From Blastocatellia bacterium (GTDB lineage Bacteria; Acidobacteriota; Blastocatellia; DASRDY01), in the NCBI GenBank assembly GCA_035652355.1, contig DASRDY010000285.1:24300-88299 (forward strand): a stretch of 64,000 nucleotides of DNA. The letters are read 5' to 3'. A program made the translations under genes and the position numbers. Below the pieces are notes generated by a model that saw only the letters and a program-made list of their open reading frames with translations, did not search any database and was not told where the DNA came from. Numbering within the stretch: position 1 is the stretch's first letter; every line of letters starts with the position of its first letter. Positions 3,858 through 58,858 of the stretch are shown here, in pieces.

Positions 3858-4261
3858 CCACCTGCATATCTCTCCAAAATATTTGCCGGGTTATGTAACG
3901 TTGTCGAGCCGATTTCACATAATTTTCCATAACTGCTTCGTTTCTTTGGCCTCAGCGTAATTGCACCTTGGCTCCAACATTTTACCACGCCTATAATGCC
4001 CCCAGCCTTGGATAGTCTCATCCGACTCCAAGCGCAGTACCAATAGAGTCGAGAGATTCTAATTCACGATTTCTGCCCTTATCAGCGCCGAAAATGTCGG
4101 CGCGCGCGAGCCCAATCACCCGTGGTTTGCGCGAAACAGATTTGTAAAGCGAGAGATAACTTCTACAGCTTTTTGCCCAGGCGTTCCGACGCATCTGCCC
4201 TTAACACAAGGCGAAAAGTTTGGACACAACTGGGCAACCCCACTCTAAAAGAGGGAGATAT

Positions 4262-8557: not shown

Positions 8558-8582
8558 TCGATTACACTGATCTAAACCCAGG

Positions 8583-8613
8583 AAAAAGCCCGGCCAGACT
8601 GGTCGGGCTTTTT
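8583..8613. terminator. Bidirectional rho-independent terminator between convergent genes
   Basis: AAAAA-GCCCGGC-cagactg-GTCGGGC-TTTTT: a 7-bp GC-rich stem (one G.U) flanked by an A5 run and a T5 run. It lies between the + gene ending at 8557 and mnmA ending at 8737. Confidence 0.7.
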
Positions 8614-8736
8614 CCATGTGTGCGTCTGGGATACGCAAACCAACATCCGACTTTCAACTGGTTTTGTTTTTAGTTGAGGAAGGAAATGAATCAACCCAGG
8701 GGTATGTACCTATCCATCATGGATCAGCACTTTAGG

Positions 8737-43761: not shown

Positions 43762-44073
43762 ATGCTGGAAACATGTACACACTCAACATTTAATAATCTT
43801 ACGGACCGAAAGTTTACAATTTATCACGGTTCTGACCAGCCACTCGAGACAGAGTTGATCGAGGTAGGGGATTTGGTCGAAACCAACCGTCAGGAAATGT
43901 TTGCCATTTATTTCAGAGTTCCTGATGGCGTAATACCCGCCCAGGGTTCATACAAACTGGTGAATTCAGAATTAGGAGAACTTATCCTCTTGCTGGTGCC
44001 TGTTATTCATGACGAGTCTATTATTTATGAAGCAGTCTTTAACCGCCTGAAGAAAAAAAAACCGACGGCCTAA
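43762..44073 (+). CDS. Hypothetical 103-aa protein between the two GNAT genes
   Basis: The pattern F.I....D..LE.ELIEV.......RQEMFAIYF.VP....P.QGSYKL.N..LGEL.LLLVPV......IYEAVFN recalls a DUF (possibly DUF6916). I cannot verify the accession. Confidence 0.5.
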   Translation: MLETCTHSTFNNLTDRKFTIYHGSDQPLETELIEVGDLVETNRQEMFAIYFRVPDGVIPAQGSYKLVNSELGELILLLVPVIHDESIIYEAVFNRLKKKKPTA

Positions 44074-44087
44074 AACCCCCGAATCTC

Positions 44088-44567
44088 ATGAACATAAATT
44101 ATCGCCCTGTAACCGATAATGACAAGCAGTTCCTGTTTAAGGTGTACTGCTTCAGCCGAGCCGTGGAGATGGCTCAGGTCCCCTGGAGCGACGCGCAAAA
44201 GGAAGCCTTTTTGATGATGCAGTTTCAGGCGCAGTCTAGCCATTATCAGGAGTACTACCCCAACAGTGATCATAAAATAATCCTGCTGGATGACCAGGCG
44301 ATAGGTCGTCTCTATCTTGCGTACGAGGATGATCGAATCGAAATCCTTGATATTGCCCTCTTGCCTCAGCATCGCGGATCGGGGATTGGCAAAAGAATCA
44401 TTGGTGAGCTTACCCATCAGGCGGAAACCGCTGGTCTTCCTCTGTGTATTTATGTGGAAACGTTTAATCCGTCGGTAGGGATATTTGAACGGTTGGGATT
44501 TAGCCAGAAAGAGACTGACGGGGTGAACATTCGATTCGAATGGCGGCCAACGAGCAGGCTGTTGTAA
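44088..44567 (+). CDS. GNAT-family N-acetyltransferase (paralogue)
   Basis: DIALLPQHRGSGIGKRII and FERLGF are present. Clear paralogy with 43142..43660 supports the + strand over the overlapping minus-strand 171-aa ORF. Confidence 0.8.
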   Translation: MNINYRPVTDNDKQFLFKVYCFSRAVEMAQVPWSDAQKEAFLMMQFQAQSSHYQEYYPNSDHKIILLDDQAIGRLYLAYEDDRIEILDIALLPQHRGSGIGKRIIGELTHQAETAGLPLCIYVETFNPSVGIFERLGFSQKETDGVNIRFEWRPTSRLL

Positions 44568-44935
44568 CTCGACTTGAAATCGCAACGTCCAATTTGCGAG
44601 ACGGATTTTCTCATTTTTTCTTGCTTATTAGTTTTTTCGAAGTTAGAATCGCCGGGCTCAGGTAAAGGATTCCTAAAAAGCTCAAATTATATGGGCTATC
44701 GAATAGACCGTCGGATTGTAACTTGTAATTTAGATGGCCGTATTGCGCTTGAAGGAAAGGTACGGCAGTCTGCGGGCCTGCTCTCGCTGTTTGTAACAAC
44801 ATTGTCTGGTTCAGCGATGTCACTGTTTAGGGTGGCAGTTCTAACGATCTCGTAGTCAGGCACATCTCTTAGTTGAGAGCCGTACAACTTCCGGCCGTGT
44901 AAACGATTGTTTTGAAGGTTTGCGAATCCGGCCGC

Positions 44936-45194: not shown

Positions 45195-45719
45195 ATGAGC
45201 AGTCCATACGTTGGGGAGATCAGGATGTTTGGCGGTAGCTTCGCGCCGGTCGGCTGGGCATTGTGCCAGGGCCAGACGATTCCAATTTCGCAAAATGACA
45301 CGCTCTTTAACTTGATCGGCACTACATATGGTGGTGACGGGCAGGAAACGTTTGACCTTCCAAATCTTGCCGGCAGAGTGCCCGTTCACCAGGGACAAGG
45401 TCCTGGCATAAGTCAAAATTACGTAATCGGTGAGACGGGCGGCGTCGAAGGTGTCACTTTAACAACCCAGCAAATTCCCAACCATTCACACCTTCCCGCG
45501 TGCAATAACACCAGTGCTGGTGCCACTACGAACGGTGGGGTATGGGGAACTGCGCCGACGACCGCAAACACTTTTTACGGCCCAACTCCCGCTAACGTGG
45601 CGTTCAACGCGCAGGCGATTCAACCCCAGGGCGGCAGTCAACCGCACGAGAATATGCAGCCGTTTCTGGTTGTAACCTTCATTATCTCTTTATTTGGCAT
45701 CTTTCCGACACAGAATTAA
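45195..45719 (+). CDS. Phage tail-collar domain protein (COG4675 / MdpB-like), paralogue 1
   Basis: GGAGGAG RBS. N-terminus: PYVGEIRMFGGSFAPVGWALCQGQTIPISQNDTLFNLIGTTYGGDGQETFDLPNLAGRVP. C-terminus: GGSQPHENMQPFLVVTFIISLFGIFPTQN. Confidence 0.85.
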   Translation: MSSPYVGEIRMFGGSFAPVGWALCQGQTIPISQNDTLFNLIGTTYGGDGQETFDLPNLAGRVPVHQGQGPGISQNYVIGETGGVEGVTLTTQQIPNHSHLPACNNTSAGATTNGGVWGTAPTTANTFYGPTPANVAFNAQAIQPQGGSQPHENMQPFLVVTFIISLFGIFPTQN

Positions 45720-45775
45720 CGGAGTTGTTCAGGTGCTGAGGCGTTTCACATATAGAGTGCAATAGGAGAAACCAA

Positions 45776-46270
45776 ATGGGTACACCTTTTTTGGCAGAGA
45801 TGAGATTAATAAGTTTTAACTTTGCGCCCAAAGGCTGGGCCTTGTGCAATGGGCAATTGTTGCCAATTAATCAGAACCAGGCACTGTTTTCGATCCTGGG
45901 AACAACATACGGCGGGAATGGACAGACGACTTTCGCGCTCCCGGATTGCAGGAGTCGCGTTCCGATTCATACGGGACCGCAATTTAGTACCCTGGGGGAA
46001 AGGGGAGGTGAAGAATTTCATACTGTAATCCAGTCTGAGATGCCTGCGCATCTTCATTTCGTGCAGGCCAGCACTCTGGCCGCAAACGTCGCCAGCGAGA
46101 GTTCCGCTTTCTGGAGTACCACGACTGCATATGCGGGAGCACCCAATTCCACCATGGATCCTTCCTCCATTACAAGTATCGGAGGGTCTCAGCCGCACGA
46201 GAATCGGCAGCCTTATCTGGTGCTAAACATCATTATTGCGCTTCAGGGCGTCTTCCCAAGCAGAAATTAG
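45776..46270 (+). CDS. Phage tail-collar domain protein, paralogue 2
   Basis: AGGAGA RBS. N-terminus: FAPKGWALCNGQLLPINQNQALFSILGTTYGGNGQTTFALPD. C-terminus: GGSQPHENRQPYLVLNIIIALQGVFPSRN. Confidence 0.85.
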   Translation: MGTPFLAEMRLISFNFAPKGWALCNGQLLPINQNQALFSILGTTYGGNGQTTFALPDCRSRVPIHTGPQFSTLGERGGEEFHTVIQSEMPAHLHFVQASTLAANVASESSAFWSTTTAYAGAPNSTMDPSSITSIGGSQPHENRQPYLVLNIIIALQGVFPSRN

Positions 46271-46287
46271 AGAATAAGGAGAAAAAT

Positions 46288-46821
46288 ATGTCAGCTCCGT
46301 TCGTAGCCGAAATAAAAATGTGGGCCGGAAATTTTGCGCCCACCGGATATGCCTTATGTGACGGTCAGTTATTGCCGATCAGTCAAAACACCGCTCTTTT
46401 CTCTCTGCTTGGAACCTTTTATGGCGGTGACGGCAAGAGTACTTTTGCTCTGCCGAACATGCAGGACAGCGTTCCTATAAATCAGGGGCAAAGCTCTGCC
46501 AGCGGTACGGATTATTTTATCGGAGAGCAATCAGGGGTTCCGTTTGTAACATTGATAACGACCGAGATGCCTGTACACACGCATACGGCGCAGGGCGGTT
46601 CAAGCGGTACGAGCAACAACCCGCAAAGTCTCACTTGGGGGCAAATGGCAGTTGGCCGAACCGGCACTCCGCTGTATCAAAGCGCCAATACTAATCTGAC
46701 AACAATGAACCCGCAATCCTTAGGGATCGCCGGAGGCAGTCAACCGCATAATAATATGATGCCTTTTATTGTATTGACCTTTATTATCGCGCTTCAGGGT
46801 ATCTTTCCAGCGCGATCCTAG
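46288..46821 (+). CDS. Phage tail-collar domain protein, paralogue 3
   Basis: AAGGAGA RBS. N-terminus: FAPTGYALCDGQLLPISQNTALFSLLGTFYGGDGKSTFALPN. C-terminus: GGSQPHNNMMPFIVLTFIIALQGIFPARS. Confidence 0.85.
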   Translation: MSAPFVAEIKMWAGNFAPTGYALCDGQLLPISQNTALFSLLGTFYGGDGKSTFALPNMQDSVPINQGQSSASGTDYFIGEQSGVPFVTLITTEMPVHTHTAQGGSSGTSNNPQSLTWGQMAVGRTGTPLYQSANTNLTTMNPQSLGIAGGSQPHNNMMPFIVLTFIIALQGIFPARS

Positions 46822-47162: not shown

Positions 47163-50100
47163 ATGAAGACATTGATTCGTCGTTTTGGATTCACCAGATT
47201 TGTTGTTCTGACGTTATGCATTACGTTCGTGTTGGTGCTGGTCAAGCGTGAATCAATGGTCCTTGCAACCAGCCTGTTTCATGCGGCGACATCGGGTCGC
47301 ACCCAAACCAAGGACAATACCCAGGCTAAAGATCACACTCAGCTTAAAGTTCTGAGTTCTGTCAAAGTTCGGCCGACATCTATAGCGAAGCCGATGATCA
47401 AGCTTCAGGACAGTCGCGAGCTTTCATCTGACAGCGCGAGCGCTGTGGGTACATCGCATCAATCACTGGCGCTTAACTCGCCCATAGCAGGCTCGCTCAG
47501 ACCTGCCGATTCGATTTATAGTTCTCTGCGGCAAGCGGGCGCACGGCCGCTCGCCCTGGCGACTGCGGATATTAATCGGGACGGATTCCCCGATCTGATT
47601 ACAGGCTACGCGACTTCCGGGGGCGGAGTATTGATGTTGCGGTGGGCCAACGAGCAGGCCTATGCTCCCAGCGATCCGGCTGTCCTCGAAGGTATTAGAC
47701 AGCGCCGGTTTCCCAATCCATTCTTTGATGATGGGGCCACGATCGAACTGCCCGAAGCTCCTGATTTTGTATTAACCGGTGATTTCAACCATGACGGCAT
47801 AGTGGATGTTGTGGTTGCCGCCAAGGGCAGCAATGCGTTCTACCTCCTTGCGGGGGATGGACTGGGCGGATTTTCCGCTCCGACGCGCAAAGAATTGCCA
47901 GGCGCGGTAACGGCAATGACTGCGGGAGAGTTCGGCGCCCAGGATGGCTCGATGGACCTTGTTATAGGCGTCAATGGCTCCGGGGGATCTTCAGTACTGA
48001 TTTTCGATAAACACGAGAGCATTATCGATTCCACTCCTGAGGTTCGCGGTATATCAGGGTCGATCACGACATTGGCGCTGGGTTCACTTGATGGCGATCA
48101 ATTCAACGATCTTGCCATACTGGCGGGAGGCAGGCTGAGTGTTCTGCACGGCCAGGATCGCCTGGAAGGAGTGGATTCAGCAGCGACAGCCAGGCTTGAG
48201 AGCATTCCGTTATCGTTTGCTCCTAAATCATTTTCGCTGGGGAATTTCATCTGGGACCGTGAGGATAAGACTGAGATAGCCGTAATGTCGGCCGATAATC
48301 AGGTTCACATTCTTGCCCGCGGCAGTCTTGACGTTCGTCCCTTTACAGAAGAGGAAGTTCTGGCGAGTCGCAAGGACAAAGAAGCAAAAACCATTGCGAT
48401 GGCGAACGGTACTTATGTCGCGCCGGTTCTGAGCCAGTCGGCGGCAAACCAAAAATGGGCAATTGCGGAAGATGTTCCGGTTGAATCGACTGGAGTCGGC
48501 AATTCCGCGCCAATCCTGCTTACCACCAGAATGTCCTCCGTTCCTGCGGATGATCTGCTGGTCAAGGTTCCTGGCGGCACCCAAATTCAGGTTATGTACA
48601 AAGACACGAATCAGTCGGTAACTCGTAGCCGCACCAGCGGACGAGTGATGACTGGTAGAACTCCCGTGACGCTTGATTCAGCCAGCGAACCAGTCGCGGT
48701 ACTGCCGATGCGGGTCAATGTCGATGGTCGACCTGGTCTGGTTGTAATGAGCCAGGGTAATGTGACCGCTTCAGTTATAATGCCTGAAGGCGGCACCACC
48801 ATCACGGTCAACTCTGCCACGGACGTTATTCACAGTCCCGGATGCGCAACGACTGGCACAGGTACTTGTTCGCTCAGGGATGCGATTATCTTCTCGAACG
48901 CCGATACGGGCGCCGCAGATACGATTGTTTTCAGCGTTGGTATTAATCCAACTTTAACCATATCCAGTGGAGGCGCGGCGGAAAACAATGCGCAATCCGG
49001 AGATTTGGACATTAATCGCAGTGTTACCATAACCGGGAATGCTCCTACGACAGTCAGTACTACGTTCGATAATACCTGCGGCGACTGCAAGGTTTTCGGA
49101 ATCGATCAGACGGGTTTATTCCCTGGCGAGACTGTAAGTATGTCTGGTCTTACGATCCAGAATGGTGTTAATCACGGAAACGCAGGTTCGATTTGCGGTA
49201 CGTTCTTCGAAACGGGCGGCGGCATTGACGTCTTTTTCAAATCCTCTGGAAATTCCTTCACGTTGACGAATTCAACAGTAACAAACAATAGAACCGACCT
49301 TTGTGTGGCTGCCGGGCAGCATAGTCACGGCGGTGGCATCAACATCGATAGCAATAATCAGGCAATTGTAGGGGGCGCCAGCGCCGGTACGGCAACATTA
49401 ACTAATGTTACAGTCAGCAATAATATCGCGGGTCTTCAGGCTGGCGGAATTGGTCTTTTAGCGGACGTCCACAACGTGAACTTGACCAACGTTACAATAA
49501 CTGGCAACCAGAGCCAGCATTCAGATGGAGGCGGAGTATTCGTTTTACACAGCTTTGGTGGAACCGATACGTTTTCCAACGGATCGGTCTCGAGTAACAC
49601 GTCAGATGGGATAGGCGGTGGAGTTGAAATTGACGGTAATCAGGTAGTCAATTTTACAGGGACGACTTTTACCAGCAATACCGCCACTGGCACCGGCGCG
49701 AGTTCATTGGGCGGTGGGCTTGCCATTACCAACATTGGAGCGGCAGGCGTTACCGGAAGCACATCATTAACGAACTGCACCATAGATAGTAACCACGCCA
49801 ACAACGGCGCAAATTCAGGTGGTGGTGGTGTCTATTTCAACGGGGGTTACTCGTTGACTATTTCCGCCTGCGATATTAAAAACAACACCGGCGGTCAGGG
49901 TGGGGGTATTTTCAACGGTGGCAGCAACAGCTCGCCTGGCAGCACTGTAACGATAAATAATCTGACACTTATACACGGCAATTCAGCCGTCACCACTGGC
50001 GGTGGCAACGGAGATGGCGGAGGTATTGCAAACGGCCAAATCGGTGGAGCTGGGACTCAGTCTGGAACCATCGTAACCAAAACTCATATATTCGGAAACA

Positions 50101-53100
50101 CGGCGGCTAACAATGGTGGTGGTATCGCAGTTGGTCCTTTGACTAATGGAGCGACGTTTTCGATGAGCTTTAGCCGAATTGTTAATAACACTTCTAACGC
50201 TGCGACCAATCACGGAATCGAGGTTAATGGCACGAACGCAGTTGCGAGTGTGGCCGACAACTGGTGGGGTTGTTCGCAGAATCCGATCGGCAGTACTCAG
50301 TGCGACTCTGCGCACGCGACATCCGGAACGCTGACGGTTACCCCATTCCTGCAGATCACCAATTCGGCGGCGCAGAATCCGATTAAAGTTGGAGCAACCA
50401 CGACTCTGACTGCTACGGTTCAGGATTCGAACGGAATAAATCAGTCGTCAGCCAATTTGGACGTCTTTATTACCAGCAATGCAACCGCTGGAACCCCGTT
50501 GCCTGTAACCTGGAGCGCTGCGACAAACTCAATCACAATTGACGCGAACAGCTCGCCGCTTAAGAACGTCGGCGGAGTCGTTCAGGTGACGGCCACATAT
50601 AACGGGACAAATCCTGTGCATCATGATCCGGCGGCGGCCAAGGTCGATAACGATTTCACGACCGGATCGCATCCGAATGTGGTTTTGATGACTGTCCTCT
50701 CGCCGCCTAGCATTGCAAAAGCGTTCGGATCGCCAAATGTTGCGATAAACGGTGCACCAAACACGACGACTTTGACGTTTACGATAACAAACCCGAATGT
50801 GGGCGACGGGTTGAATGGACTTGCGTTTACAGATACCTTCGCGCCTGGCGCGGCAAATATCAAAGTCGCATCTCCGCCCAATGCATCGACCACTTGCGGC
50901 GGCGGAACGGTGACGGCGGTTGCAGGCTCAGGCTCCGTTTCATTGAGCGGTGGCACGATCGGCATAAATACTACTTGTACCGTTACCGTCACTGTTCAAG
51001 GCCAAGCTCCTGACGGTACAGCTAATAACACCAGCGGGAATGTTACGGCCACCGATGCGGGTGGTTTGACTGGCAACACTGCCAGTGCCAGCACGCTTGT
51101 GGCCGATGCGCCAACTATCGCAAAACTATTCGGCGCCGCTACAATACCGCTGAACGGCACCACGTCGTTGACATTCACTCTTCAGAATACGAACGCGAAT
51201 ACAGCGCTGAGCGGAGTCGCGTTTAGCGACACTCTGCCCGCTGGATTGACAGTCGCTACCCCAGGAAACCCGAGCACCAACTGCCCAGGCGGAACTGTTA
51301 CCGCTACGAATGGGTCATCGAGCATAACCCTCTCGGGTGCATCGCTCGCAACCGGGGCAACTTGCACTGCAACGGTTACCGTTCAGGGAACAACAGCCGG
51401 AGTGAAGAACAACACGGCATCCGCTTCATCTACGACTACGGGTGCTCTTACTAATTCGACAGGTACGGTTCCAATAACAGTTGTGGCGCCGCCGACGATC
51501 AGCAAGGCATTCGGTGCGCCCAGCATACCATTGAACGGCACGACAACGATGACCTTCACGATTACCAATCCGAATACCACGGTTGGTTTGAGTGGACTCG
51601 CATTTAGCGACACATTCCCATCAGGTCTGCAGGTGGCAGCGACACCGGGCGTGGTCAATAACTGCAACGGGACCTTCACTCCGGCAGCAGGTGATACTAC
51701 GGTCAGCCTCTCAGGAGGGACGGTCGGTACCAATACCTCCTGTACTATCACGGTTAATGTAACCGGAACAACAGCAGGTGCGATGGCGAATATAACCGGA
51801 GCGATTTCGTCGACCGAAGGCGGAACGGGCACAACCAGCAACACGGCAACGCTCAATGTGTTTGCGCCTCCTACAATTTCCAAGGCGTTTGGTGTCTCGA
51901 CGATAGCGGTCAATGGTACGACATCTCTCACCTTCACAATTACAAACCCGGCCTCGAATCCAGGGGCATTGACAGGTATTGGTTTTACCGATTCTCTGCC
52001 TGCGGGACTGGTGGTCGCGACGCCTAATGGGTTGTCAAACACTTGTAATGGTACAGTGACGGCGGTCGCCGGATCAGGTTCGATAACCCTGAATAACAAC
52101 GGCAGCATCACCACTCCTGGTACTACCTGTACGATCCAGGTAAATGTTACCGGCACCACTTCCGGGGTGAAAAACAACACAACCGGTGCTATATCATCGA
52201 CCAATGGCGGAACCGGCGCAACCAGTAACACTGCCACTTTGACGGTCGCATCGCCGCCGACTATTAGCAAGGCTTTCGGCGCGGCGACGATTCCGCTAAA
52301 CGGCACAACGTCAATGACGTTCACGATCAGCAATCCAAACTCGATTGGACTAACCGGTCTTGCGGTTTCGGATACTCTTCCGGCAGGTTTGGTTGTTGCA
52401 ACTCCGAACAACCTGAGCAATTCATGTAATGGCAGCGTGACGGCTACATCGGGTACAAATTCGGTGAGCCTGTCTGGCGGCACGATAGCGGCCAGTCCTG
52501 CTACCTGTACAGTGTCTGTAGATGTTCAGGGCACAACGGCCGGTGTGAAGAGCAACACTACTACCGCAATCACTTCTACTGAAAGCGGACCCGGCACAAC
52601 CAGCAACACCGCGACAGTAACAGTGGTAGCACCGCCTACAATCAGCAAGGCGTTCGGCGCTGCCAGTGTGGCGGTCAATGGCAGCACGACGTTGACATTC
52701 ACGATAAGTAATCCTAACGCTACAGTCAGCCTGACGGGCCTGGCATTTAATGACAGCTTCCCGTCGGGTCTTCAGGTAGCATCGACACCTGGCGTCGTCA
52801 ACAACTGCGGTGGGACCTTTACTGCGAATGCTAATGCGACATCTGTGAGCCTGTCGGGTGGCACGGTTGGTACTGGCGGGTCGTCGACTTGTACAATAAC
52901 AGTCAATGTTACCGGTACATCGGCAGGCGCGAAGGCCAATACTACTGGCGCAGTCTCCTCGACTGAGGGCGGAACCGGCGCAGTCAGCAACACCGCGACA
53001 CTAAACGTGTTTGCTCCGCCGACGATCAGCAAAGCATTTGGTACTAGTCAGGTCCCGCTCGGTGGAACTACGACCCTGACCTTTACGATCACTAATCCGG

Positions 53101-56100
53101 CGGCTAATCCCGGTGGGCTAACAGGAATCGGCTTCACGGATACGCTGCCAGCGGGGCTTGTTGTCGGAACGCCGAACAATCTCTCGAACACCTGCAGCGG
53201 TACCGTAACCGCGACTGCCGGGTCGAGTTCGATATCCCTTAATAACAACGGCAGCATCGCTACGCCGGGGAATACCTGTACGATTCAGGTAGATGTGACG
53301 GGAACTACCTCGGGAGTGAAAAACAATACCACAGCCGCGATTACATCGACCAATGGCGGCACAGGCGCAACCAGCAATACCGCGACGCTGACGGTGGCGT
53401 CCCCGCCGGTCATCTCGAAGTCGTTTACTCCTTCGACGGTAGGGGTAAATGGTTTCTCGAGCCTGTCATTTACCATTCAAAATAACAACAATGCGGGTTC
53501 GCTGACTGGTGTAGGCTTCACCGACAATCTGCCTGCAAACCTGGTTGTGTTCACTCCGAATGGATTATCGGGAAGCTGCGGAGGCGGCACAATCAGCGCA
53601 GTGGCGGGATCATCGACGATCAGCCTTACGAATGCGACTCTGCCTGCAAGCAGCAGTTGTACTTTCTCTGTTGCTGTAACGCCGGAAACGGTCGGGACAT
53701 TCAACAACACAACAACTAATGTTACATCCAACGAGGCAGGCAACGGCAATCAGGCCAGCGCCACGCTTACCTCGCTGAATCCTCCTAGCATTGCCAAGTT
53801 CTTTGGCGCTCCGCGCATCGATGTGGGAACTTCCACTTCTCTGACTTTCCAGATCGACAACTTCAACGGCGCTGATTCTCTTACGGGAGTGCACTTCCTG
53901 GATACTTTGCCTTCAGGTTTGAGGGTAGCTACTCCCAATGGCGTAAGCGGCAACTGCGGTGGTGTGGTTGTTGCGAATGCGGGATCCAGCACGATCAGCC
54001 TGACGAACGGTAGTCTTGCGCCCGGGGCTAATTGCAGCTTCAGCGTCAATGTCACGGCAATCAGCGGAGGCACTCAGGTCAACGTCACTGGCAACGTCAT
54101 TTCCACCAATGGCGGCTCGGGCAACACAGCCACTGCTCAGATCGATACCTGCAGTTATGTGGTCTCACCAGTTTCGCTGTCATACCCAATATCGGGTGGC
54201 ACGGGCACGGTGACAGTGACGCCCAACATCGGGACCTGTTCATGGACAGCAGTCAGCAATGACAGCTTTGTCCACATTACCAGTGGAGCCGGACCAACAA
54301 CTGGCAACGGCAGTGTGCAGTTCACTGTCGACAACTCAGGCGGCACACCAAGAACCGGAACGATGACCATTGCCACAAACACCGTGGTGGTGGATCAGAC
54401 CAATCCGACTGCGATCAATCTCAACAGCTTCACCGCCACCAAGATCGGATCGGCAACGCTGCTGAAGTGGCAGACCGGTATGGAAGTTCACAACCTTGGT
54501 TTCAACATCTACCGGGATGACAATGGTCAGAAGGTGCAGATCAATCCTTCTCTGATTGCCGGATCAGCACTGAGAGTGGGAATGAATACCAACGTGCAGT
54601 CAGGCTTCGGCTACTCCTGGGTTGATCATTCGGGCGGCGGCAGCTACTACCTTGAAGACGTCGATCTCAACGGCACCAGCACCCTGCACGGACCGTTCAG
54701 TGCCACATCGGGCACTGCAGATTTGACCGCCAATTCGATGATGCTCTCAGAGGTCAACAGCGCCGCGGCACAGAGCTATTCACTGCAGCGAGGCTATCCT
54801 GCAGGAGTGGAGATCAGCTCAGGCAGTGCGTCCTCTGCTGATACGACTGCAAGAACAGCGGGAAGAAGCCCGAACCGACCCGCGACTGTCAGCAACGCAC
54901 TGAAGAAGCAGTGGTCGATAGCTTCGCAATCGGCAGTGAAGATCGGAGTGAACAAGACGGGCTGGTATCAAGTCAATGCTGTTGATCTGTTCACGGCGGG
55001 ACTCGACACCGCCGCGAAACCCGGCAACCTGCAGATGTTTGTGGGCGGAGCAGAGGTACCGATCAAGGTCAATGCCGCCAGTTCGGATCATCTGTCAGTG
55101 GGAGACACAATCGAGTTCTACGGAGCTGCGCTTGATACTACTACCGCCAATACCCGGGTCTACTGGCTGACATCAGGAACTTCAGCAGGCAGACGAGTGG
55201 GCAGTGTCACTGCCTCGGCAAGCTCAGGTAATGGCGGATCATTCGCTTACACCGTGGAGCGGCAGGACAAGAGCATCTACTTCTCCGGTCTGCTCAATGG
55301 AGAGGCCGAGAACTGGTTTGGCGCCCTGGTTAACACCACTCCCGCAACACAGAACCTGACCATCAACCATCTGGATCAGAACTCCGCTGATCCTGCTGTG
55401 ATAGAGGTAGGGCTGCAGGGAGCGACAGGATCGCTGCACAACGTGACGGTGATGCTGAACGGAACAGCGATTCAGAACATCAACTTCAACGGACAGGCGC
55501 ATCAGGTGGTACAGATAGAAGTACCGCAAAGTGGGCTGGTTGAAGGCAATAACACGGTAAGCCTTGCTGCTGCGGCAGGCGGAGACATCTCGCTGGTGGA
55601 TTATGTGAAGATTACCTACGCACACAGCTATCAGGCAGAGAACAACAGCCTGTTCACCAACGTACCGGCCAATCAGGCGGTGAGCATCACAGGCTTCACA
55701 TCGAATCAGATCAGAGCCATCGATGTCAGCAATCCACTGCAACCACTGGAACTGCAGGGAGCGATAGATACATCGGATGCGAATATCTCCACGATCAGCC
55801 TGGTTACCGGCAAACAGAGCAACCTGATTGCGTTCACGCCCGATCAGATGCTCAGTCCGGTGTCTATCACCGCAAACAATCCTTCATCTCTCAATCAAGG
55901 AGGAGCGGGAGCCAACCTGGTGATCATCGGCTACAGAGACTTCCTGCAGAGCGTACAGCCGCTGGTGGCGCTAAAACAGAGCCAGGGCTACGCGGTAGCA
56001 GTAGTGGATGTAGAGGACATCTACGATGAGTTCAGCTATGGAGTGCATTCGCCACAGGCGGTGAAGGACTTCCTCAGCTGGAGCTATCTGCACTGGCAGA

Positions 56101-56924
56101 AGCAGCCACAGTACGTGATGCTGGCGGGAGACGCTTCATACGATCCGAAGGGTTATCTGGGACTGGGCAATCAGGACTTCGTGCCGACGAAGCTGATAGA
56201 CACTGCCAATATGGAGACAGCCAGTGACGGCTGGCTGGTGGATTTCAACAATGATGGCACAGAGCAGATGGCCATAGGCCGACTACCGGTACGAACAGCG
56301 GCGGATGCCACGGCAATGGTCAACAAGATCGTTGCCTACGAGCAGACAGGCACAGCGCAGACGATGGTGCTGGTGTCAGACCTTAACGATGGGCTGGACT
56401 TTGCGGCAAGCAATGCTCAGATCGGAGCAATGGCGCCGTCGCAGATGTCTGTAGTCAATATAGTGAGAGGACAGACAACAACAGATGCCAGGACGGAATT
56501 GCTGGATCAATTGTCGCAGGGTGGCCGAATAGTGAACTATGCGGGACACGGGTCGGTGAACCTGTGGCGAGGGAATCTGCTGACGAACGATGATATGTCT
56601 GTGCTAACCAACAGCAAGACATCGGCGCTGGTAGTGACAATGACCTGTCTGAACGCCTATTCACTGGATTCGAGACTGCCAAGCCTTGGAGAAGCGTTGC
56701 TGAACGTAAAACAAGGCGGAGCAGTATCGGTGTGGGCATCGACAGCAATGACCGATATGAGCAACCAGAGCGGAATGAACCAGGCGTTGTTCCGGCAGTT
56801 GCTGGGAAACAGTCAGATCACCATAGGAGACGCGATCAGAACAGCGAAGAAGACAGAGCCGAATAATGATGTAAGAAGGAGCTGGATGCTGTTCGGCGAT
56901 CCGACAATGAAGATAAAGCAGTAG
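47163..56924 (+). CDS. Giant (3253 aa) secreted/anchored protein: FG-GAP propeller + beta-helix + 9 DUF11-like repeats + BACON-like domain + C-terminal peptidase C25 (gingipain-like) domain
   Basis: AAGGAG RBS. The N-terminal anchor is FVVLTLCITFVLVLV. FG-GAP/VCBS-type blades are present (DINRDGFPDLITG, GDFNHDGIVDVVVAA, LDGDQFNDLAIL). The hallmark CSLRDAIIFSNADTGAADTIVF is followed by G-rich beta-helix turns. Nine ~127-aa repeats follow, then CSYVVSP..GGTGTVTVTPNIGTCSWTAVSND (BACON-like). The C25-like end has VIIGYRDFLQSVQPLVALKQSQGYAVAVVDVEDIYDEFSYG, YAGHGSVNLW (His) and LVVTMTCLNAY (Cys). Confidence 0.85.
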   Translation: MKTLIRRFGFTRFVVLTLCITFVLVLVKRESMVLATSLFHAATSGRTQTKDNTQAKDHTQLKVLSSVKVRPTSIAKPMIKLQDSRELSSDSASAVGTSHQSLALNSPIAGSLRPADSIYSSLRQAGARPLALATADINRDGFPDLITGYATSGGGVLMLRWANEQAYAPSDPAVLEGIRQRRFPNPFFDDGATIELPEAPDFVLTGDFNHDGIVDVVVAAKGSNAFYLLAGDGLGGFSAPTRKELPGAVTAMTAGEFGAQDGSMDLVIGVNGSGGSSVLIFDKHESIIDSTPEVRGISGSITTLALGSLDGDQFNDLAILAGGRLSVLHGQDRLEGVDSAATARLESIPLSFAPKSFSLGNFIWDREDKTEIAVMSADNQVHILARGSLDVRPFTEEEVLASRKDKEAKTIAMANGTYVAPVLSQSAANQKWAIAEDVPVESTGVGNSAPILLTTRMSSVPADDLLVKVPGGTQIQVMYKDTNQSVTRSRTSGRVMTGRTPVTLDSASEPVAVLPMRVNVDGRPGLVVMSQGNVTASVIMPEGGTTITVNSATDVIHSPGCATTGTGTCSLRDAIIFSNADTGAADTIVFSVGINPTLTISSGGAAENNAQSGDLDINRSVTITGNAPTTVSTTFDNTCGDCKVFGIDQTGLFPGETVSMSGLTIQNGVNHGNAGSICGTFFETGGGIDVFFKSSGNSFTLTNSTVTNNRTDLCVAAGQHSHGGGINIDSNNQAIVGGASAGTATLTNVTVSNNIAGLQAGGIGLLADVHNVNLTNVTITGNQSQHSDGGGVFVLHSFGGTDTFSNGSVSSNTSDGIGGGVEIDGNQVVNFTGTTFTSNTATGTGASSLGGGLAITNIGAAGVTGSTSLTNCTIDSNHANNGANSGGGGVYFNGGYSLTISACDIKNNTGGQGGGIFNGGSNSSPGSTVTINNLTLIHGNSAVTTGGGNGDGGGIANGQIGGAGTQSGTIVTKTHIFGNTAANNGGGIAVGPLTNGATFSMSFSRIVNNTSNAATNHGIEVNGTNAVASVADNWWGCSQNPIGSTQCDSAHATSGTLTVTPFLQITNSAAQNPIKVGATTTLTATVQDSNGINQSSANLDVFITSNATAGTPLPVTWSAATNSITIDANSSPLKNVGGVVQVTATYNGTNPVHHDPAAAKVDNDFTTGSHPNVVLMTVLSPPSIAKAFGSPNVAINGAPNTTTLTFTITNPNVGDGLNGLAFTDTFAPGAANIKVASPPNASTTCGGGTVTAVAGSGSVSLSGGTIGINTTCTVTVTVQGQAPDGTANNTSGNVTATDAGGLTGNTASASTLVADAPTIAKLFGAATIPLNGTTSLTFTLQNTNANTALSGVAFSDTLPAGLTVATPGNPSTNCPGGTVTATNGSSSITLSGASLATGATCTATVTVQGTTAGVKNNTASASSTTTGALTNSTGTVPITVVAPPTISKAFGAPSIPLNGTTTMTFTITNPNTTVGLSGLAFSDTFPSGLQVAATPGVVNNCNGTFTPAAGDTTVSLSGGTVGTNTSCTITVNVTGTTAGAMANITGAISSTEGGTGTTSNTATLNVFAPPTISKAFGVSTIAVNGTTSLTFTITNPASNPGALTGIGFTDSLPAGLVVATPNGLSNTCNGTVTAVAGSGSITLNNNGSITTPGTTCTIQVNVTGTTSGVKNNTTGAISSTNGGTGATSNTATLTVASPPTISKAFGAATIPLNGTTSMTFTISNPNSIGLTGLAVSDTLPAGLVVATPNNLSNSCNGSVTATSGTNSVSLSGGTIAASPATCTVSVDVQGTTAGVKSNTTTAITSTESGPGTTSNTATVTVVAPPTISKAFGAASVAVNGSTTLTFTISNPNATVSLTGLAFNDSFPSGLQVASTPGVVNNCGGTFTANANATSVSLSGGTVGTGGSSTCTITVNVTGTSAGAKANTTGAVSSTEGGTGAVSNTATLNVFAPPTISKAFGTSQVPLGGTTTLTFTITNPAANPGGLTGIGFTDTLPAGLVVGTPNNLSNTCSGTVTATAGSSSISLNNNGSIATPGNTCTIQVDVTGTTSGVKNNTTAAITSTNGGTGATSNTATLTVASPPVISKSFTPSTVGVNGFSSLSFTIQNNNNAGSLTGVGFTDNLPANLVVFTPNGLSGSCGGGTISAVAGSSTISLTNATLPASSSCTFSVAVTPETVGTFNNTTTNVTSNEAGNGNQASATLTSLNPPSIAKFFGAPRIDVGTSTSLTFQIDNFNGADSLTGVHFLDTLPSGLRVATPNGVSGNCGGVVVANAGSSTISLTNGSLAPGANCSFSVNVTAISGGTQVNVTGNVISTNGGSGNTATAQIDTCSYVVSPVSLSYPISGGTGTVTVTPNIGTCSWTAVSNDSFVHITSGAGPTTGNGSVQFTVDNSGGTPRTGTMTIATNTVVVDQTNPTAINLNSFTATKIGSATLLKWQTGMEVHNLGFNIYRDDNGQKVQINPSLIAGSALRVGMNTNVQSGFGYSWVDHSGGGSYYLEDVDLNGTSTLHGPFSATSGTADLTANSMMLSEVNSAAAQSYSLQRGYPAGVEISSGSASSADTTARTAGRSPNRPATVSNALKKQWSIASQSAVKIGVNKTGWYQVNAVDLFTAGLDTAAKPGNLQMFVGGAEVPIKVNAASSDHLSVGDTIEFYGAALDTTTANTRVYWLTSGTSAGRRVGSVTASASSGNGGSFAYTVERQDKSIYFSGLLNGEAENWFGALVNTTPATQNLTINHLDQNSADPAVIEVGLQGATGSLHNVTVMLNGTAIQNINFNGQAHQVVQIEVPQSGLVEGNNTVSLAAAAGGDISLVDYVKITYAHSYQAENNSLFTNVPANQAVSITGFTSNQIRAIDVSNPLQPLELQGAIDTSDANISTISLVTGKQSNLIAFTPDQMLSPVSITANNPSSLNQGGAGANLVIIGYRDFLQSVQPLVALKQSQGYAVAVVDVEDIYDEFSYGVHSPQAVKDFLSWSYLHWQKQPQYVMLAGDASYDPKGYLGLGNQDFVPTKLIDTANMETASDGWLVDFNNDGTEQMAIGRLPVRTAADATAMVNKIVAYEQTGTAQTMVLVSDLNDGLDFAASNAQIGAMAPSQMSVVNIVRGQTTTDARTELLDQLSQGGRIVNYAGHGSVNLWRGNLLTNDDMSVLTNSKTSALVVTMTCLNAYSLDSRLPSLGEALLNVKQGGAVSVWASTAMTDMSNQSGMNQALFRQLLGNSQITIGDAIRTAKKTEPNNDVRRSWMLFGDPTMKIKQ
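50703..54147 (+). repeat. Nine in-frame tandem coding repeats of ~381 nt (~127 aa) inside the giant gene
   Basis: Each unit reads PPxIxKxFG..(I/V)..NG.T.LTFTIxNPN...LTGxxFxDxLPxGLxVATPxxxxxxCxGTVTAxxGxxxIxLxxGxIxxxxxCTxxVxVxGTxxGxxxNxTxxxxSxxGGxGxxSNTATLxV, with one conserved Cys pair. Units 3/6 and 4/7 are much more alike than neighbouring units. Confidence 0.85.
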
Positions 56925-57024: not shown

Positions 57025-57060
57025 TCAGGACTGCGCGTAACAGATCGGAATGGAGCAGAT

Positions 57061-57537
57061 ATGAGCAAGAAAGAGACGAAGCCCTGCGCCAGGAGCAAGG
57101 GACTGGTGGTACAAAAGCTGGAAGGAGAAGTGCTGGTCTATGACACAGAGAAGCAGCAGGCGCACTGCCTCAATGGAACGGCCGCACTGATCTGGGAGCA
57201 GTGTGATGGAACGAGAACAGTGAAGGAACTTGCCGGTCTGCTTCGAGGAGATGTAACAGAGCGAGAGAGGGAAGAGCTGGTCTGGATCGCGCTTGAAGAG
57301 CTAAACAGATCAAATCTGTTGGAAGAGCCGCTGGCACGACCATCAGCCATAAGCGGACTCAGCCGAAGACAGATGCTGAAGGCAGCCGGGGTTGCGGCCA
57401 TGATCGCGGTTCCTGTCGTGAGCACAATAGTAGCACCAAAAGCAGCACAGGCATCGACTTGTCTTCCGACCAGCGCCGGTTGCACGATCAGCGCTCAATG
57501 TTGCAGCGGTATCTGCTCTGGCGGCGCGTGTGCGTAA
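57061..57537 (+). CDS. PqqD-like (RRE-type) domain fused to a Tat-motif hydrophobic segment and a 27-aa six-cysteine C-terminal peptide
   Basis: GGAG lies 5 nt before the ATG. The PqqD pattern is LVVQKLEGEVLVYDTEKQQAHCLNGTAALIWEQCDGTRTVKELAGLL..LEELNRSNLL. Then come SRRQMLKAAGVAAMIAVPVVSTIVAPKAAQA and STCLPTSAGCTISAQCCSGICSGGACA. Confidence 0.7.
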   Translation: MSKKETKPCARSKGLVVQKLEGEVLVYDTEKQQAHCLNGTAALIWEQCDGTRTVKELAGLLRGDVTEREREELVWIALEELNRSNLLEEPLARPSAISGLSRRQMLKAAGVAAMIAVPVVSTIVAPKAAQASTCLPTSAGCTISAQCCSGICSGGACA

Positions 57538-57560: not shown

Positions 57561-57598
57561 ACGCAACAGGGACCTTGTGGGTGCCCTGTTGCGTTTTT
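57561..57598 (+). terminator. Rho-independent terminator
   Basis: ACGCAACAGGG (57561-71) - 12-nt loop - CCCTGTTGCGT (57584-94) is followed by TTTTT. It sits 24 nt after the stop at 57537. Confidence 0.8.
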
Positions 57599-57647
57599 CC
57601 TCCTACCAATCTGCGTAACTAACGAACTGCAAATCGCCGAATACCTG

Positions 57648-57989
57648 TTACTGCAACAGCTTCAGCTTTTTAAAAAATAAACCATCATTGGTTGGTCCAA
57701 CCGCAACAGCGGTCATTTCATTATTGAAATCCTCTTCGATAAAGCTCTCACATATCCGTCCATTTGATTCGATCTGATTTCCCCAGAAATCAAGTTCTTT
57801 TTCATCCTTGACGCCCAGAAGAACCAGTGTTCTATCATCTTCAGCCCACTTTTGAATCTAAGGATCGTCGCCATGACGCGAAATCAGATTTGCCAGCGCG
57901 TGACACGCCTGAACCGCTCTTTGGGCCCAGCATAAATCCTGGCGAACCAGGATATACACTTTCAATTTGCCGCAAGATTTTTCAGCCAT
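57648..57989 (-). CDS. PTH2-family (peptidyl-tRNA hydrolase 2-like) gene, 113 codons, with one in-frame TAG at codon 44 (57858..57860). It is either read through by the adjacent tRNA(CUA) or a nonsense pseudogene.
   Basis: My hand translation is MAEKSCGKLKVYILVRQDLCWAQRAVQACHALANLISRHGDDP[TAG]IQKWAEDDRTLVLLGVKDEKELDFWGNQIESNGRICESFIEEDFNNEMTAVAVGPTNDGLFFKKLKLLQ*. Family-like sequence is present on both sides of the TAG. ATG 57989 overlaps the upstream ORF's stop (ATGGCTGA). The gene is missing from the ORF track because neither half reaches 60 aa from a start codon. Confidence 0.6.
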
Positions 57990-58515
57990 TTTCTTCCTCC
58001 TTTAACGTCTTGCGGCTCGCCAGCGACGATTCGATGTGAGCCAGCTTTTCCGATCGATTTTTTAACCTGTTATCTATTTTCTTCAGATAACGGTAAGCCT
58101 GAATACAAATATATCGCTCTTTGCCTCTTCTCGCGTGGTGGCATAACCCTCCGTCTCGGATATTCCTTTGAAGCGCTTTGAATTCCGGAATATGCTCATC
58201 ATTCAATTTCAAAATAATCCGCGCGGTTAGCAGCACGGATGCGCGCCGCTTTGCCGAGATGTAGAGTTTCCAATCCGGATGTTTCTGAGACATATAACCG
58301 GTCCGCTTTTCGTAGCTCACCTTTGCCAGCTTCCACGCGGATACGGCCGTTGCTCTACGAGAGTTTCGGTTTACGAACGACTTTCCGTCAGGAGATACGT
58401 AGGCGATGTTTTCAAATGTTTCTCTGACTAAATTCTGATTTTTCAGCCTGTGAATCTCTTCCGATTGTTTACTGACGTAATATTGAAAAACCTGTGTTAT
58501 TGATACCATTGTCAT
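57982..58515 (-). CDS. Hypothetical 177-aa Lys/Arg-rich protein
   Basis: AAAGGA RBS lies before ATG 58515. No family is recognised. The gene is translationally coupled to the PTH2-like frame. Confidence 0.6.
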   Translation of the reverse strand: MTMVSITQVFQYYVSKQSEEIHRLKNQNLVRETFENIAYVSPDGKSFVNRNSRRATAVSAWKLAKVSYEKRTGYMSQKHPDWKLYISAKRRASVLLTARIILKLNDEHIPEFKALQRNIRDGGLCHHARRGKERYICIQAYRYLKKIDNRLKNRSEKLAHIESSLASRKTLKEEENG

Positions 58516-58786: not shown

Positions 58787-58858
58787 TGCGCCCTGTGGGA
58801 TTCGAACCCACACCCTGGCGCTTTAGAGACGCTTGCTCAACCATTGAGCTTAGGGCGC
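58787..58858 (-). tRNA. tRNA with anticodon CUA (amber/UAG-reading suppressor type); amino-acid identity undetermined
   Basis: The reverse complement is GCGCCCU-AA-GCUC-AAUGGUU-GAGC-A-AGCGU-CUCUAAA-GCGCC-AGGGU-GUGGG-UUCGAAU-CCCAC-AGGGCGC-A. All four stems pair, with one A.C and one U.G in the anticodon stem. G18G19, U33, A37, the T-loop UUCGAAU and the G53-C61 pair are present, and the 5-nt variable loop makes it class I. Atypical features are A8 and U21. CCA is not encoded. Confidence 0.8.

Follow-up and report, generated by a model that had tools for sequence, protein, structure and literature searches.

RiPP recognition elements (RREs; RiPPs are peptides made on the ribosome and modified after translation) are known as stand-alone proteins or as domains fused to enzymes, and in either setting they read the leader of a separate precursor (PMC7470986), which they bind as an added strand between strand β3 and helix α3 (PMC7470986). 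In lasso peptide clusters the precursor can be tailored: an HprK-family kinase, PsmK/PadeK, phosphorylates its C-terminal Ser (PMC6993621), and PsmN, which is described as an 'uncharacterised NTP transferase' and has a pair of essential Asp residues, is needed for placing a hexose on that phosphate (PMC6993621). We analysed a 64,000-nucleotide stretch of contig DASRDY010000285.1 from a Blastocatellia bacterium, referred to here as the window, which contains a gene in which an RRE is itself fused N-terminally to an export-type signal segment and a Cys-rich cargo. We call this gene and its family T, and the giant gene that adjoins it BIG; residue numbers are those of the 158-aa protein of the window, MSKKETKPCARSKGLVVQKLEGEVLVYDTEKQQAHCLNGTAALIWEQCDGTRTVKELAGLLRGDVTEREREELVWIALEELNRSNLLEEPLARPSAISGLSRRQMLKAAGVAAMIAVPVVSTIVAPKAAQASTCLPTSAGCTISAQCCSGICSGGACA. 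An earlier note on this DNA, made from the letters and an open reading frame (ORF) list, had divided the T ORF into a PqqD/RRE domain, a segment with an SRR motif, a hydrophobic core and an AxA site, and a six-Cys tail, and each of these three parts was identified in our analysis. The comparisons that follow give strong support to the view that T is a family with a conserved leader, made up of the RRE and the RR signal, and a diversifying Cys-rich cargo, a pattern like that of precursor families.

Relatives of T, all of them from metagenomes or metagenome-assembled genomes (MAGs), were numerous. A word-indexed search returned 115 full-length relatives of 155–175 aa, named 'hypothetical' or 'PqqD family' in their sources, and an exhaustive profile search returned 1,817 representatives at 50% identity with E ≤ 1e-30, and 5,826 with E ≤ 1e-10. 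Species-representative genomes held 356 copies. Among the best 80 of these copies, 73 came from records labelled Acidobacteriota, Blastocatellia or with names beginning in Pyrinomonad, all were from MAGs, and multiple copies per genome were common; nearly all T copies belong to Acidobacteriota (Blastocatellia/Pyrinomonadaceae). At least 350 homologues retain all three parts. Related loci were found with a profile built from a 19-sequence alignment, and all residue conservation counts refer to 351 aligned members. Mean pairwise identity was 0.53 in the hydrophobic (h-) region, 0.50 in the RR region, 0.46 in the RRE, 0.29 at the non-Cys positions of the tail and 0.19 in the linker. The segment made up of the RR motif, the hydrophobic stretch and the AxA site is therefore the best-conserved part of T, a pattern opposite to what is expected of a signal peptide. 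Close relatives keep the six Cys of the tail almost without exception. Across the wider family, tails carry 4–16 Cys, with the 6-Cys knottin the commonest form; other forms include 4-Cys tails that lack exactly the first and fourth Cys, 8-Cys tails, and tails of 10–16 Cys and up to ~100 aa, tandem knottins among them. In four loci (L059, L065, L067 and L082), tandem T paralogues share the leader and have different Cys frameworks. The type of tail showed no clear-cut correlation with the genes around T. The T family is not covered by any NCBIfam model, and no NCBIfam family scored above its cutoff for the T protein; in the literature we found no description of an architecture that combines an RRE, an export signal and a cargo, nor of a widespread bacterial knottin family. 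The statement in the earlier note that this architecture is not that of a described family therefore stands.

The N-terminal part of T, residues 12–90 (57,094–57,330, plus strand), matched PF05402 over residues 23–72 with 33.5 bits (E = 5e-8), which exceeds the gathering score of 23.4, and the same family was found in 102 of 102 aligned T members. AlphaFold2 (AF2) models of the window protein and of a relative that shares 44% identity with it gave the winged-helix order β1-β2-β3-α1-α2-α3, with a predicted local distance difference test score (pLDDT) of ~90–96 in this domain. In Foldseek the modelled domain matched two lasso B1 RREs whose structures include a leader peptide, TbiB1 and 6jx3, with template modelling (TM) scores of 0.81–0.83 and a root-mean-square deviation (rmsd) of ~2 Å. 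By sequence and by fold, T is a member of the PqqD/RRE superfamily. We saw no hydrophobic segment in the sequence of the N-terminal domain, and the view that residues 12–90 fold as a peptide-binding domain that stays in the cytoplasm is strongly supported. The domain is followed by a variable, Pro-rich linker (residues 91–99; 57,331–57,357, plus strand), the least conserved segment of the protein. As a separate observation, three residues of the RRE, H35, C36 and C48 (57,163–57,171 for H35-C36 and 57,202–57,207 for C48-D49), are near-invariant (305, 329 and 336 of 351, respectively) and are specific to the T family rather than a general PqqD feature. Both Cys were kept in 319 members, ~25 members had lost one and 3 had lost both; such independent loss argues against a structural disulfide between C36 and C48 and would fit a metal or redox site beside the peptide-binding strand β3.

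Behind the linker, residues 100–131 (57,358–57,453, plus strand) read LSRRQMLK, then AAGVAAMIAVPVVSTIVAP, then KAAQA, with the two Arg codons at 57,364–57,369. The segment runs from S101-R-R-Q-M-L-K107 through a hydrophobic stretch of 19 residues, with a mean Kyte-Doolittle value of 1.98, to P126 and A129-Q-A131. The last of these (57,445–57,453, plus strand) is a predicted signal peptidase I site, with the cut predicted before S132. R102 is Arg in 350 members and R103 in 346, and Lys was never observed at either position. Ser or Thr precedes the RR pair in 298 members; hydrophobic residues occupy +2 and +3, and 323 members have Arg or Lys at +4. At the AxA site, Ala stands at −1 in 327 members, one of Ala, Val, Ser, Ile and Thr stands at −3 in 321, and Pro stands at −6 (P126) in 348. 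P126 also closes PVVSTIVAP (residues 118–126; 57,412–57,438, plus strand), a Pro-bracketed, β-branched heptapeptide that is predicted to form a β-strand and is a candidate cis ligand for the groove of the RRE. P118 is kept in 346 members and a hydroxyl residue, Ser or Thr, at position 122, within the h-region, in 335; Ser or Thr is likewise conserved at position 133, just past the AxA site (333 members). Both AF2 models predicted a strand, not a helix, at residues 120–124, and residues 109, 117 and 122 covary weakly with H35 in β3 and with I76, E69 and R70 in α3 (z ~4, kinship ignored). Comparison of the aligned sequences strongly supports the resemblance of residues 100–131 to a twin-arginine-type signal that ends in a canonical AxA site. 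The earlier note had offered two readings, an anchored display protein and a cleaved precursor; sequence evidence does not decide between the two, although the strong conservation of positions −3 and −1 favours cleavage.

The remainder of the protein, residues 132–158 (57,454–57,534, plus strand; STCLPTSAGCTISAQCCSGICSGGACA), is a knottin, or inhibitor-cystine-knot (ICK), module and the predicted exported cargo. Its Cys are spaced C-x6-C-x5-CC-x3-C-x4-C, giving the order C-C-CC-C-C. We searched 177,635 PDB sequences with a profile of 32 tails, whose scores are somewhat inflated by the Cys-rich composition. The best matches were the spider peptides U3-SYTX-Sth1h (E = 9e-6) and Sth1a (3e-5), followed by bidentatide and omega-atracotoxin-Hv1 (~9e-4) and then by conotoxins, huwentoxin and a squash trypsin inhibitor; most matches were ICK knottins, and a few were other Cys-rich modules such as Dickkopf. 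The Pfam Omega-toxin model matched 24 of the 32 tails at E ≤ 1, with a best E of 2e-4. The tail had a pLDDT of 88–96 in the two AF2 models, and Foldseek aligned it to omega-atracotoxin-Hv1a (1hvw) with a TM score of 0.84, an rmsd of 0.8 Å over 25 residues and 40% identity; the E of 0.9 for this match reflects its shortness. No pair of positions in T covaried more strongly than C134 and C148, the first and fourth Cys (C1 and C4; z 12.2, kinship ignored). Among the aligned members, again with kinship ignored, C1 and C4 were lost together in 42, C1 alone in 5 and C4 alone in 22. A I–IV connectivity is thus supported by covariation, and the Cys of the II–V and III–VI pairs hardly vary. All six Cys are aligned in at least 210 of the 351 members, and 63 more keep C1–C5 with C6 outside the aligned column. 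There is strong support, from both alignment and modelling, for an ICK module in which C1 and C4 behave as a disulfide pair. Such behaviour indicates that the module works in an oxidising compartment, outside the cytoplasm; together with an N-terminal domain that has no signal of its own, this makes an N-in, C-out topology likely. The predicted ~27-aa peptide with three disulfides has a calculated mass of 2444.92 Da.

Most of what the earlier note had read into these three parts is borne out, and each of the refuting results that it had listed was looked for and did not appear. Its PqqD/RRE assignment, for which it had named an absent family hit as the refuting result, is matched by hits at the level of both sequence (PF05402) and fold (Foldseek). 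The six-Cys knottin spacing is exact and is now accompanied by the profile matches, the AF2 models and the C1–C4 covariation. Homologues do not lack the RR motif, the tail and its Cys pattern are conserved in close relatives, and the N-terminal domain is kept while the tail varies, both in the wider family and between tandem paralogues. The claim of a Tat (twin-arginine translocation) consensus with a hydrophobic core and an AxA-type site held in part: the motif, the core and the site are present, but the curated Tat models do not recognise them, as detailed below.

T is a single gene. The ORF (57,061–57,537, plus strand) begins with ATG and includes the TAA stop, and is preceded by a Shine-Dalgarno-like GGAG (57,052–57,055, plus strand) 5 nt before the ATG. 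It is followed by an intrinsic terminator (57,561–57,599, plus strand), a 15-bp interrupted hairpin and then U5. The hairpin itself, at 57,561–57,594, begins 24 nt past the stop and has a folding energy of −25 kcal/mol (z = −3.9), with 0 of 200 shuffled sequences folding as well; a simple terminator scan of the window did not flag it. The ribosome binding site and strong terminator that had been described for this 158-aa ORF are thus both present. It had also been stated that no start codon lies just upstream of the SRR motif. This is not strictly correct, since there is an in-frame TTG at codon 87, 15 codons before R102; the TTG lies within the conserved helix α3 and has no Shine-Dalgarno sequence, and the conclusion drawn from the statement, one fused gene, stands. 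The codon two positions before the RR pair, CTC in the window, is start-capable in 46 of 91 homologous genes, and only 3 of those 46 have a Shine-Dalgarno-like motif. With nothing to indicate an internal start in the 91 homologous genes, the single fused ORF is the conserved state. Two genes, or a misassembly, can be ruled out: ~350 homologues from independent assemblies keep the fusion as a single gene, which also answers the test for two genes that had been suggested. A simple promoter scan detected no sigma-70-like promoter in the gap between BIG and T, and co-transcription of the two genes is therefore possible.

BIG (47,163–56,924, plus strand) encodes a 3,253-aa protein with a Sec-type (general secretory) signal or anchor at its N-terminus and, by Pfam, with FG-GAP, DUF11 and nine DUF7933 repeats and a C-terminal, PorU-like Peptidase_C25 domain. 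The C25 cysteine peptidase/transpeptidase domain (residues 2920–3250; 55,920–56,912, plus strand) matched PF01364 with E = 1e-75, and T lies 136 nt downstream on the same strand, as the earlier note had described. The nearest relatives of the domain in phmmer searches were PorU (6za2, E = 9e-14) and the gingipain RgpB (1cvr, E = 2e-9). In BIG, the motifs that carry the catalytic His and Cys in RgpB and PorU have as their counterparts 'NYAGHGS' and 'VTMTCLNA', and the domain is apparently active, judging by these motifs. PorU, the sortase of the type IX secretion system (T9SS), is thus the closest relative of the BIG C-terminal domain and shares its catalytic His and Cys; unlike PorU, the BIG domain ends a multi-repeat giant, and the BIG homologue of locus L038 scored 237 bits against the NCBIfam T9SS_sortase model, whose curated cutoff is 420. 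The role of PorU is to join surface proteins to a polysaccharide; the loci of T, for their part, are often exopolysaccharide (EPS) loci. No other T9SS genes were among the recurring neighbour clusters in 87 related loci. Several further features of BIG and its surroundings are worth recording. The nine DUF7933 repeats have a total E of 3e-242, and no recognisable T9SS C-terminal domain lies behind the C25 domain of BIG. Large proteins that end in C25 are frequent in related Acidobacteriota loci, sometimes with several on one contig. Directly upstream of BIG are three tandem paralogues of 174, 164 and 177 aa (45,195–46,821, plus strand) with an N-terminal phage-tail Collar domain (E ~1e-26), and a Collar-domain gene is also found upstream in locus L001.

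To describe the surroundings of T in its relatives, all ORFs within ±10 kb of T in the 87 loci were clustered without labels, and the recurring clusters were then annotated. Co-occurrence figures come from the best 80 loci and 8 others, with kinship ignored; 44 T genes had flanks of 7 kb or more in both directions and were counted as fully flanked, and partners were scored within 7 kb on the same strand. A C25-domain gene was present for 28 of the 44 fully flanked T genes, a PF14907 (NTP_transf_5) nucleotidyltransferase (NTase) gene for 30 and an HprK-like kinase gene for 23; at least one of the three was present for 36 (82%). EPS genes on either strand were found within 7 kb of 28 of the 44, and T often lies inside an EPS locus of the Wzx/Wzy type. 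Directly upstream of T was an HprK-like gene in 27 of ~90 cases, and directly downstream was NTP_transf_5 in 33 of ~90. The recurrent gene order was GT4, priming glycosyltransferase, Wzy_C, TPR/CBM, FecR-domain, TPR/CBM, HprK-related-kinase-A-like (275 aa), T, PF14907 NTP_transf_5 (360 aa) and C25 giant; a second order ran from a C25 giant through kinase, T and NTase to, further along, Wza and Wzc. Co-occurrence with C25-domain proteins, which the earlier note had proposed checking, is thus conserved. The same proposal had named radical SAM and thiol-disulfide enzymes, none of which recurs within ±10 kb in the 87 loci; nor do MNIO (multinuclear non-haem iron-dependent oxidative enzyme), lanthipeptide, cyclodehydratase or other Cys-modifying genes. 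The enzymes that do recur are the HprK-like kinase and the PF14907 NTase, which are absent from the window and so were beyond the view of the earlier note. A Lon protease gene and its neighbour recur downstream on the opposite strand and look like plain synteny.

The kinase-like protein keeps its P-loop and the NTase its GDxD motif, and neither has hydrophobic segments, so that both are probably active, cytoplasmic enzymes. The 275-aa upstream kinase-like gene of the relatives matched TIGR04352 with E = 2e-16 and 60 bits, below the cutoff of 200; no NCBIfam family scored above cutoff for the neighbouring NTase, and PDB sequence searches with the two partners gave no match. No small ORF that might supply the kinase and NTase with a substrate of their own is conserved beside them. 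A separate small precursor ORF beside the NTase was ruled out, as the 58-aa ORFs of L006 and L003 are not conserved. That of L003 looks like the precursor of a neighbouring lasso cluster. In this locus (3,605–9,811), a lasso-like cluster lies directly upstream of the T homologue and consists of a discrete 97-aa PqqD, an Asn-synthase-like cyclase, the 58-aa ORF, an ScmC/HprK-like protein, a methyltransferase and NTP_transf_5; T and then a 1,603-aa C25 protein follow. The 58-aa ORF carries the motif LYRPPELLIYGNIREITK, which we take to be lasso-leader-like. The layout of L003 suggests that the T module and the genes for lasso tailoring are linked in evolution.

The overall scheme that we favour, while giving it an even chance, is that T is a self-contained precursor or carrier for an exported cystine-knot mini-protein. 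The hydrophobic segment would take the C-terminus of T across the inner membrane, and signal peptidase would then release the ~27-aa peptide. Export may follow the Tat route, as suggested by an RR pair that is invariant and never replaced by Lys. A Tat route would be sensible if the precursor were decorated or folded before export, because bulky modifications make poor Sec substrates, as discussed for the bufferins, RiPP precursors with a general export signal (PMC11626156). The RRE might bind in cis the Pro-bracketed PVV(S/T)(S/T)IVAP strand at its β3/α3 groove and in this way chaperone or gate the protein's own export signal; the AF2 models and the covariation weakly suggest such binding, which would explain why the signal segment is the best-conserved part of T. 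The RRE could also present T to the cytoplasmic HprK-like kinase and PF14907 NTase that flank the gene in most relatives, and by analogy with the Ser phosphorylation and subsequent glycosylation of lasso peptides, these enzymes may tailor T. Outside the cytoplasm, the knottin would be a ligand, an inhibitor or a substrate of the PorU-like C25 domain of BIG and would act together with it, within the context of an EPS locus.

Several observations weigh against parts of this scheme. The SRR motif begins at residue 101, behind a folded domain of ~90 aa and not at the N-terminus, and to our knowledge a cleavable Tat signal ~100 residues from the N-terminus is unprecedented. The Pfam TAT_signal model (PF10518) gave the window protein 20.8 bits, below its cutoff of 22.7, and TIGR01409 gave it 12.5 against a cutoff of 16.7; over 102 T members, PF10518 reached its cutoff in none, with 11 of the 102 at E ≤ 0.01. 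The hydrophobic stretch, at its mean Kyte-Doolittle value, would also be suited to Sec/YidC insertion or to a stable anchor. With the hidden Markov model (HMM) thresholds missed and a segment fit for Sec/YidC, 'Tat-type' is to be read as a statement about the motif. The predicted strand at residues 120–124 is of low local confidence (pLDDT 55–67) and its pairing with β3 is presumptive, and the covariation between the h-region and the RRE groove is weak, at z ~4 with kinship ignored. As to the partners, 8 of the 44 fully flanked T genes have none of C25, kinase and NTase within 7 kb, and in the window itself neither an HprK-like kinase nor a PF14907 NTase lies beside T. The T tails have no conserved C-terminal Ser, unlike the lasso substrates of HprK-type kinases.

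In the leading alternative, which we consider doubtful though far from negligible, T is a type II single-pass adaptor (N-in/C-out), inserted by Sec/YidC, whose hydrophobic segment is a permanent anchor. Its RRE would tether a peptide substrate or the kinase and NTase, its knottin ectodomain would dock on the C25 protein in the periplasm or at the surface, and the adaptor would couple a cytoplasmic step to a surface step in EPS or surface-protein assembly. A stretch of 19 residues with a mean hydropathy of 1.98 is capable of spanning the membrane and has positive charges on its N-terminal side, the Tat HMM thresholds are missed, and T is embedded in Wzx/Wzy-type EPS loci with other membrane machinery. 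An h-region identity of 0.53 is unusually high for a disposable signal and fits a lasting role. However, an anchor needs neither the AxA residues nor the Pro at −6, which are conserved in 327 (−1), 321 (−3) and 348 (−6) of the 351 members. Two invariant Pro and β-branched residues lie in the middle of the segment, where both AF2 models place a strand and no transmembrane helix; the RR pair is never Lys, although the positive-inside rule would tolerate Lys; and variable tails, with tandem paralogues that carry different cargos, look like those of a precursor.

A second alternative concerns the function of the knottin and overlaps with the precursor scheme, being a specific version of its knottin–C25 step: the knottin would be a dedicated inhibitor of the adjoining C25 peptidase, or its folding or immunity partner, with the RRE just controlling delivery. 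The linkage to C25 genes is in line with this: 28 of the 44 T genes counted as fully flanked have one on their own strand no more than 7 kb away. Every C25 match in the fetched flanks is on the same strand as T, often adjacent, with several cognate pairs on one contig. The catalytic dyad of the BIG C25 domain is intact, close relatives strongly conserve the C25 domain and also the canonical 6-Cys tail, many knottins inhibit proteases, and the tail profile weakly matches squash-type trypsin inhibitor knottins (E ~0.09). We nevertheless judge dedicated inhibition unlikely: within 7 kb a C25 gene is absent for 16 of the 44 fully flanked T genes, many of which have the kinase and NTase alone; the tails nearest to that of the window are closer to ion-channel toxins than to protease inhibitors; and a cargo that varies from 4 to 16 Cys fits poorly with one conserved protease target. 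Last, it is very improbable that T is a classical RiPP precursor whose Cys are modified by enzymes (for example to thioethers or thiooxazoles) or bound to a metal or cluster before Tat export, with no disulfide knot: an RRE with a Cys-rich core is typical of sacti-/ranthipeptide-type and bufferin-type systems, and a Tat-type motif would fit cytoplasmic maturation (PMC11626156), but no radical SAM, MNIO, lanthipeptide or cyclodehydratase gene recurs within ±10 kb in the 87 loci, the tail matches the ICK profile and fold, and the covariation and joint loss of C1 and C4 are what a disulfide would lead one to expect.

Taken to its full extent, the precursor scheme would make T the founder of a new class: ribosomal knottins in which a cis-acting RRE gates an internal RR signal until decoration by a kinase and a PsmN-type enzyme, followed by Tat export, release by signal peptidase and handling by a PorU-like C25 transpeptidase, which would ligate the product to EPS or a surface protein or regulate it. 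This is a speculative proposal, which we consider doubtful though far from negligible. If it were true, T would represent a RiPP-like pathway with leader recognition, export targeting and cargo in one polypeptide, and the first widespread native knottin family in bacteria. RREs are understood as enzyme-borne or lone readers of a separate precursor, and a large family of reader–cargo fusions would extend that rule. The order of an RRE, an RR signal and a Cys-rich tail would also offer a handle for genome mining. Knottins are prized scaffolds for drugs and pesticides, and almost all that are known come from animals, plants and fungi; bacterial variants in their thousands, with 4–16 Cys and a built-in bacterial export leader, would provide a library ready for use and perhaps an expression system. 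A conserved, internal RR signal behind a folded domain would be a clean test case for how Tat and Sec handle signals that are not N-terminal, and T would equally be one for the cis-chaperoning of signal peptides. Acidobacteriota are among the most abundant and least understood soil phyla, and the linkage of T to PorU-like C25 and EPS genes points to an unstudied system of surface assembly or competition in them.

The window contains other features that stand apart from T. Convergent with T is a 177-aa ORF (57,982–58,515, minus strand), for which Pfam gave no match and which does not belong to the recurring neighbours. Beyond it lies a well-formed 72-nt tRNA gene (58,787–58,858, minus strand; 63.5 bits in Rfam) with anticodon CUA, which would read the amber codon UAG, and which ARAGORN labels 'tRNA-Pyl'. 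TAG is a normal stop in the window, ending 12 of 38 long ORFs including BIG, where read-through would add just 9 codons, and no CUA tRNA was found in the 87 related loci; the gene may encode a suppressor tRNA, or a mutated or pseudo tRNA. A 1,219-aa protein (17,443–21,102, minus strand) joins the catalytic domain of a 2-oxoacid dehydrogenase acyltransferase (E2; residues 97–329) to a 2-oxoglutarate dehydrogenase E1 (residues 496–1218). At 44,070–44,585, a 159-aa GNAT acetyltransferase ORF (44,088–44,567, plus strand) is almost wholly overlapped by a 171-aa minus-strand ORF that has no Pfam match and is probably spurious.

Compared with known systems, T shares PF05402, the winged-helix fold and the domain size with PqqD and with lasso B1 RREs such as TbiB1, and differs from lasso B1 systems in that no B2 protease or lasso cyclase accompanies it. 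The neighbours that recur in the 87 loci include neither a B2 leader peptidase nor an Asn-synthase-like cyclase accompanied by a short precursor, and the sole Asn-synthase cluster that we saw, that of L003, has its own separate 97-aa PqqD. The HPr-rel-A system of Haft pairs a TIGR04352 kinase with a TIGR04353 PqqD; most relatives of T have a neighbour like HprK-related kinase A that scores below the TIGR04352 cutoff, and the window has none. The PqqD of that system is ~75 aa long and lacks a signal and a Cys-rich tail, both of which T has, and TIGR04353 scored T at 16.9 bits (E = 0.009) against a cutoff of 35. Based on these scores below the curated cutoffs and on the composition of the clusters, we conclude that T is neither a TIGR04353 member nor a lasso B1 protein. 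Tailoring of lasso peptides by PsmK/PadeK and PsmN is paralleled in T relatives by a kinase and a PF14907 'uncharacterised nucleotidyltransferase' on either side of T; unlike those clusters, T has no linked cyclase or protease and no conserved C-terminal Ser, and the window is without both enzymes. With Tat signals, T shares the order S-R-R-x-hydrophobic-hydrophobic-K/R, an h-region rich in Ala, Gly, Ser, Thr and Pro, Pro at −6 and AxA, whereas its h-region is more hydrophobic and far more conserved than that of ordinary signals. Internal Tat signals exist in membrane proteins inserted by both Sec and Tat, such as the actinobacterial Rieske proteins; those follow Sec-inserted helices, whereas the RR segment of T follows a folded, soluble domain, and the cargo of T is a 27-aa disulfide peptide and not a cofactor protein.

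The tail has the C-C-CC-C-C order and similar loops in common with the ICK peptides of animals and plants (omega-atracotoxin-Hv1a, U3-SYTX-Sth1, omega-conotoxins, bidentatide and squash trypsin inhibitors), and the division into a conserved leader and a variable mature part is also that of conotoxin precursors. T differs from these in being bacterial and in having an RRE and an RR-type signal in place of the eukaryotic ER (endoplasmic reticulum) signal and propeptide; given so small and Cys-dominated a motif, the likeness may be convergent. T also resembles RiPP precursors, whose generic pattern of a conserved leader, a variable core and several paralogues per locus is also that of T. NHLP/Nif11 leaders and borosins are examples of RiPP precursors with long leaders or a cis-fused design. 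Like the NHLP/Nif11-type precursors, T has a protein-sized, conserved N-terminal part, a short variable core and several paralogues at one locus, and like self-contained precursors of the borosin type, as we understand them, it carries a recognition module in cis. Bufferins likewise combine a Cys-containing precursor with a general export signal and signal peptidase (PMC11626156). Each part of T is familiar singly, and we came upon no description of a protein that joins an RRE to both an export signal and a cargo. What sets T apart from the RiPP precursors is that its N-terminal part is an RRE, the reader and not the thing read, and that its signal is internal and of the RR type.

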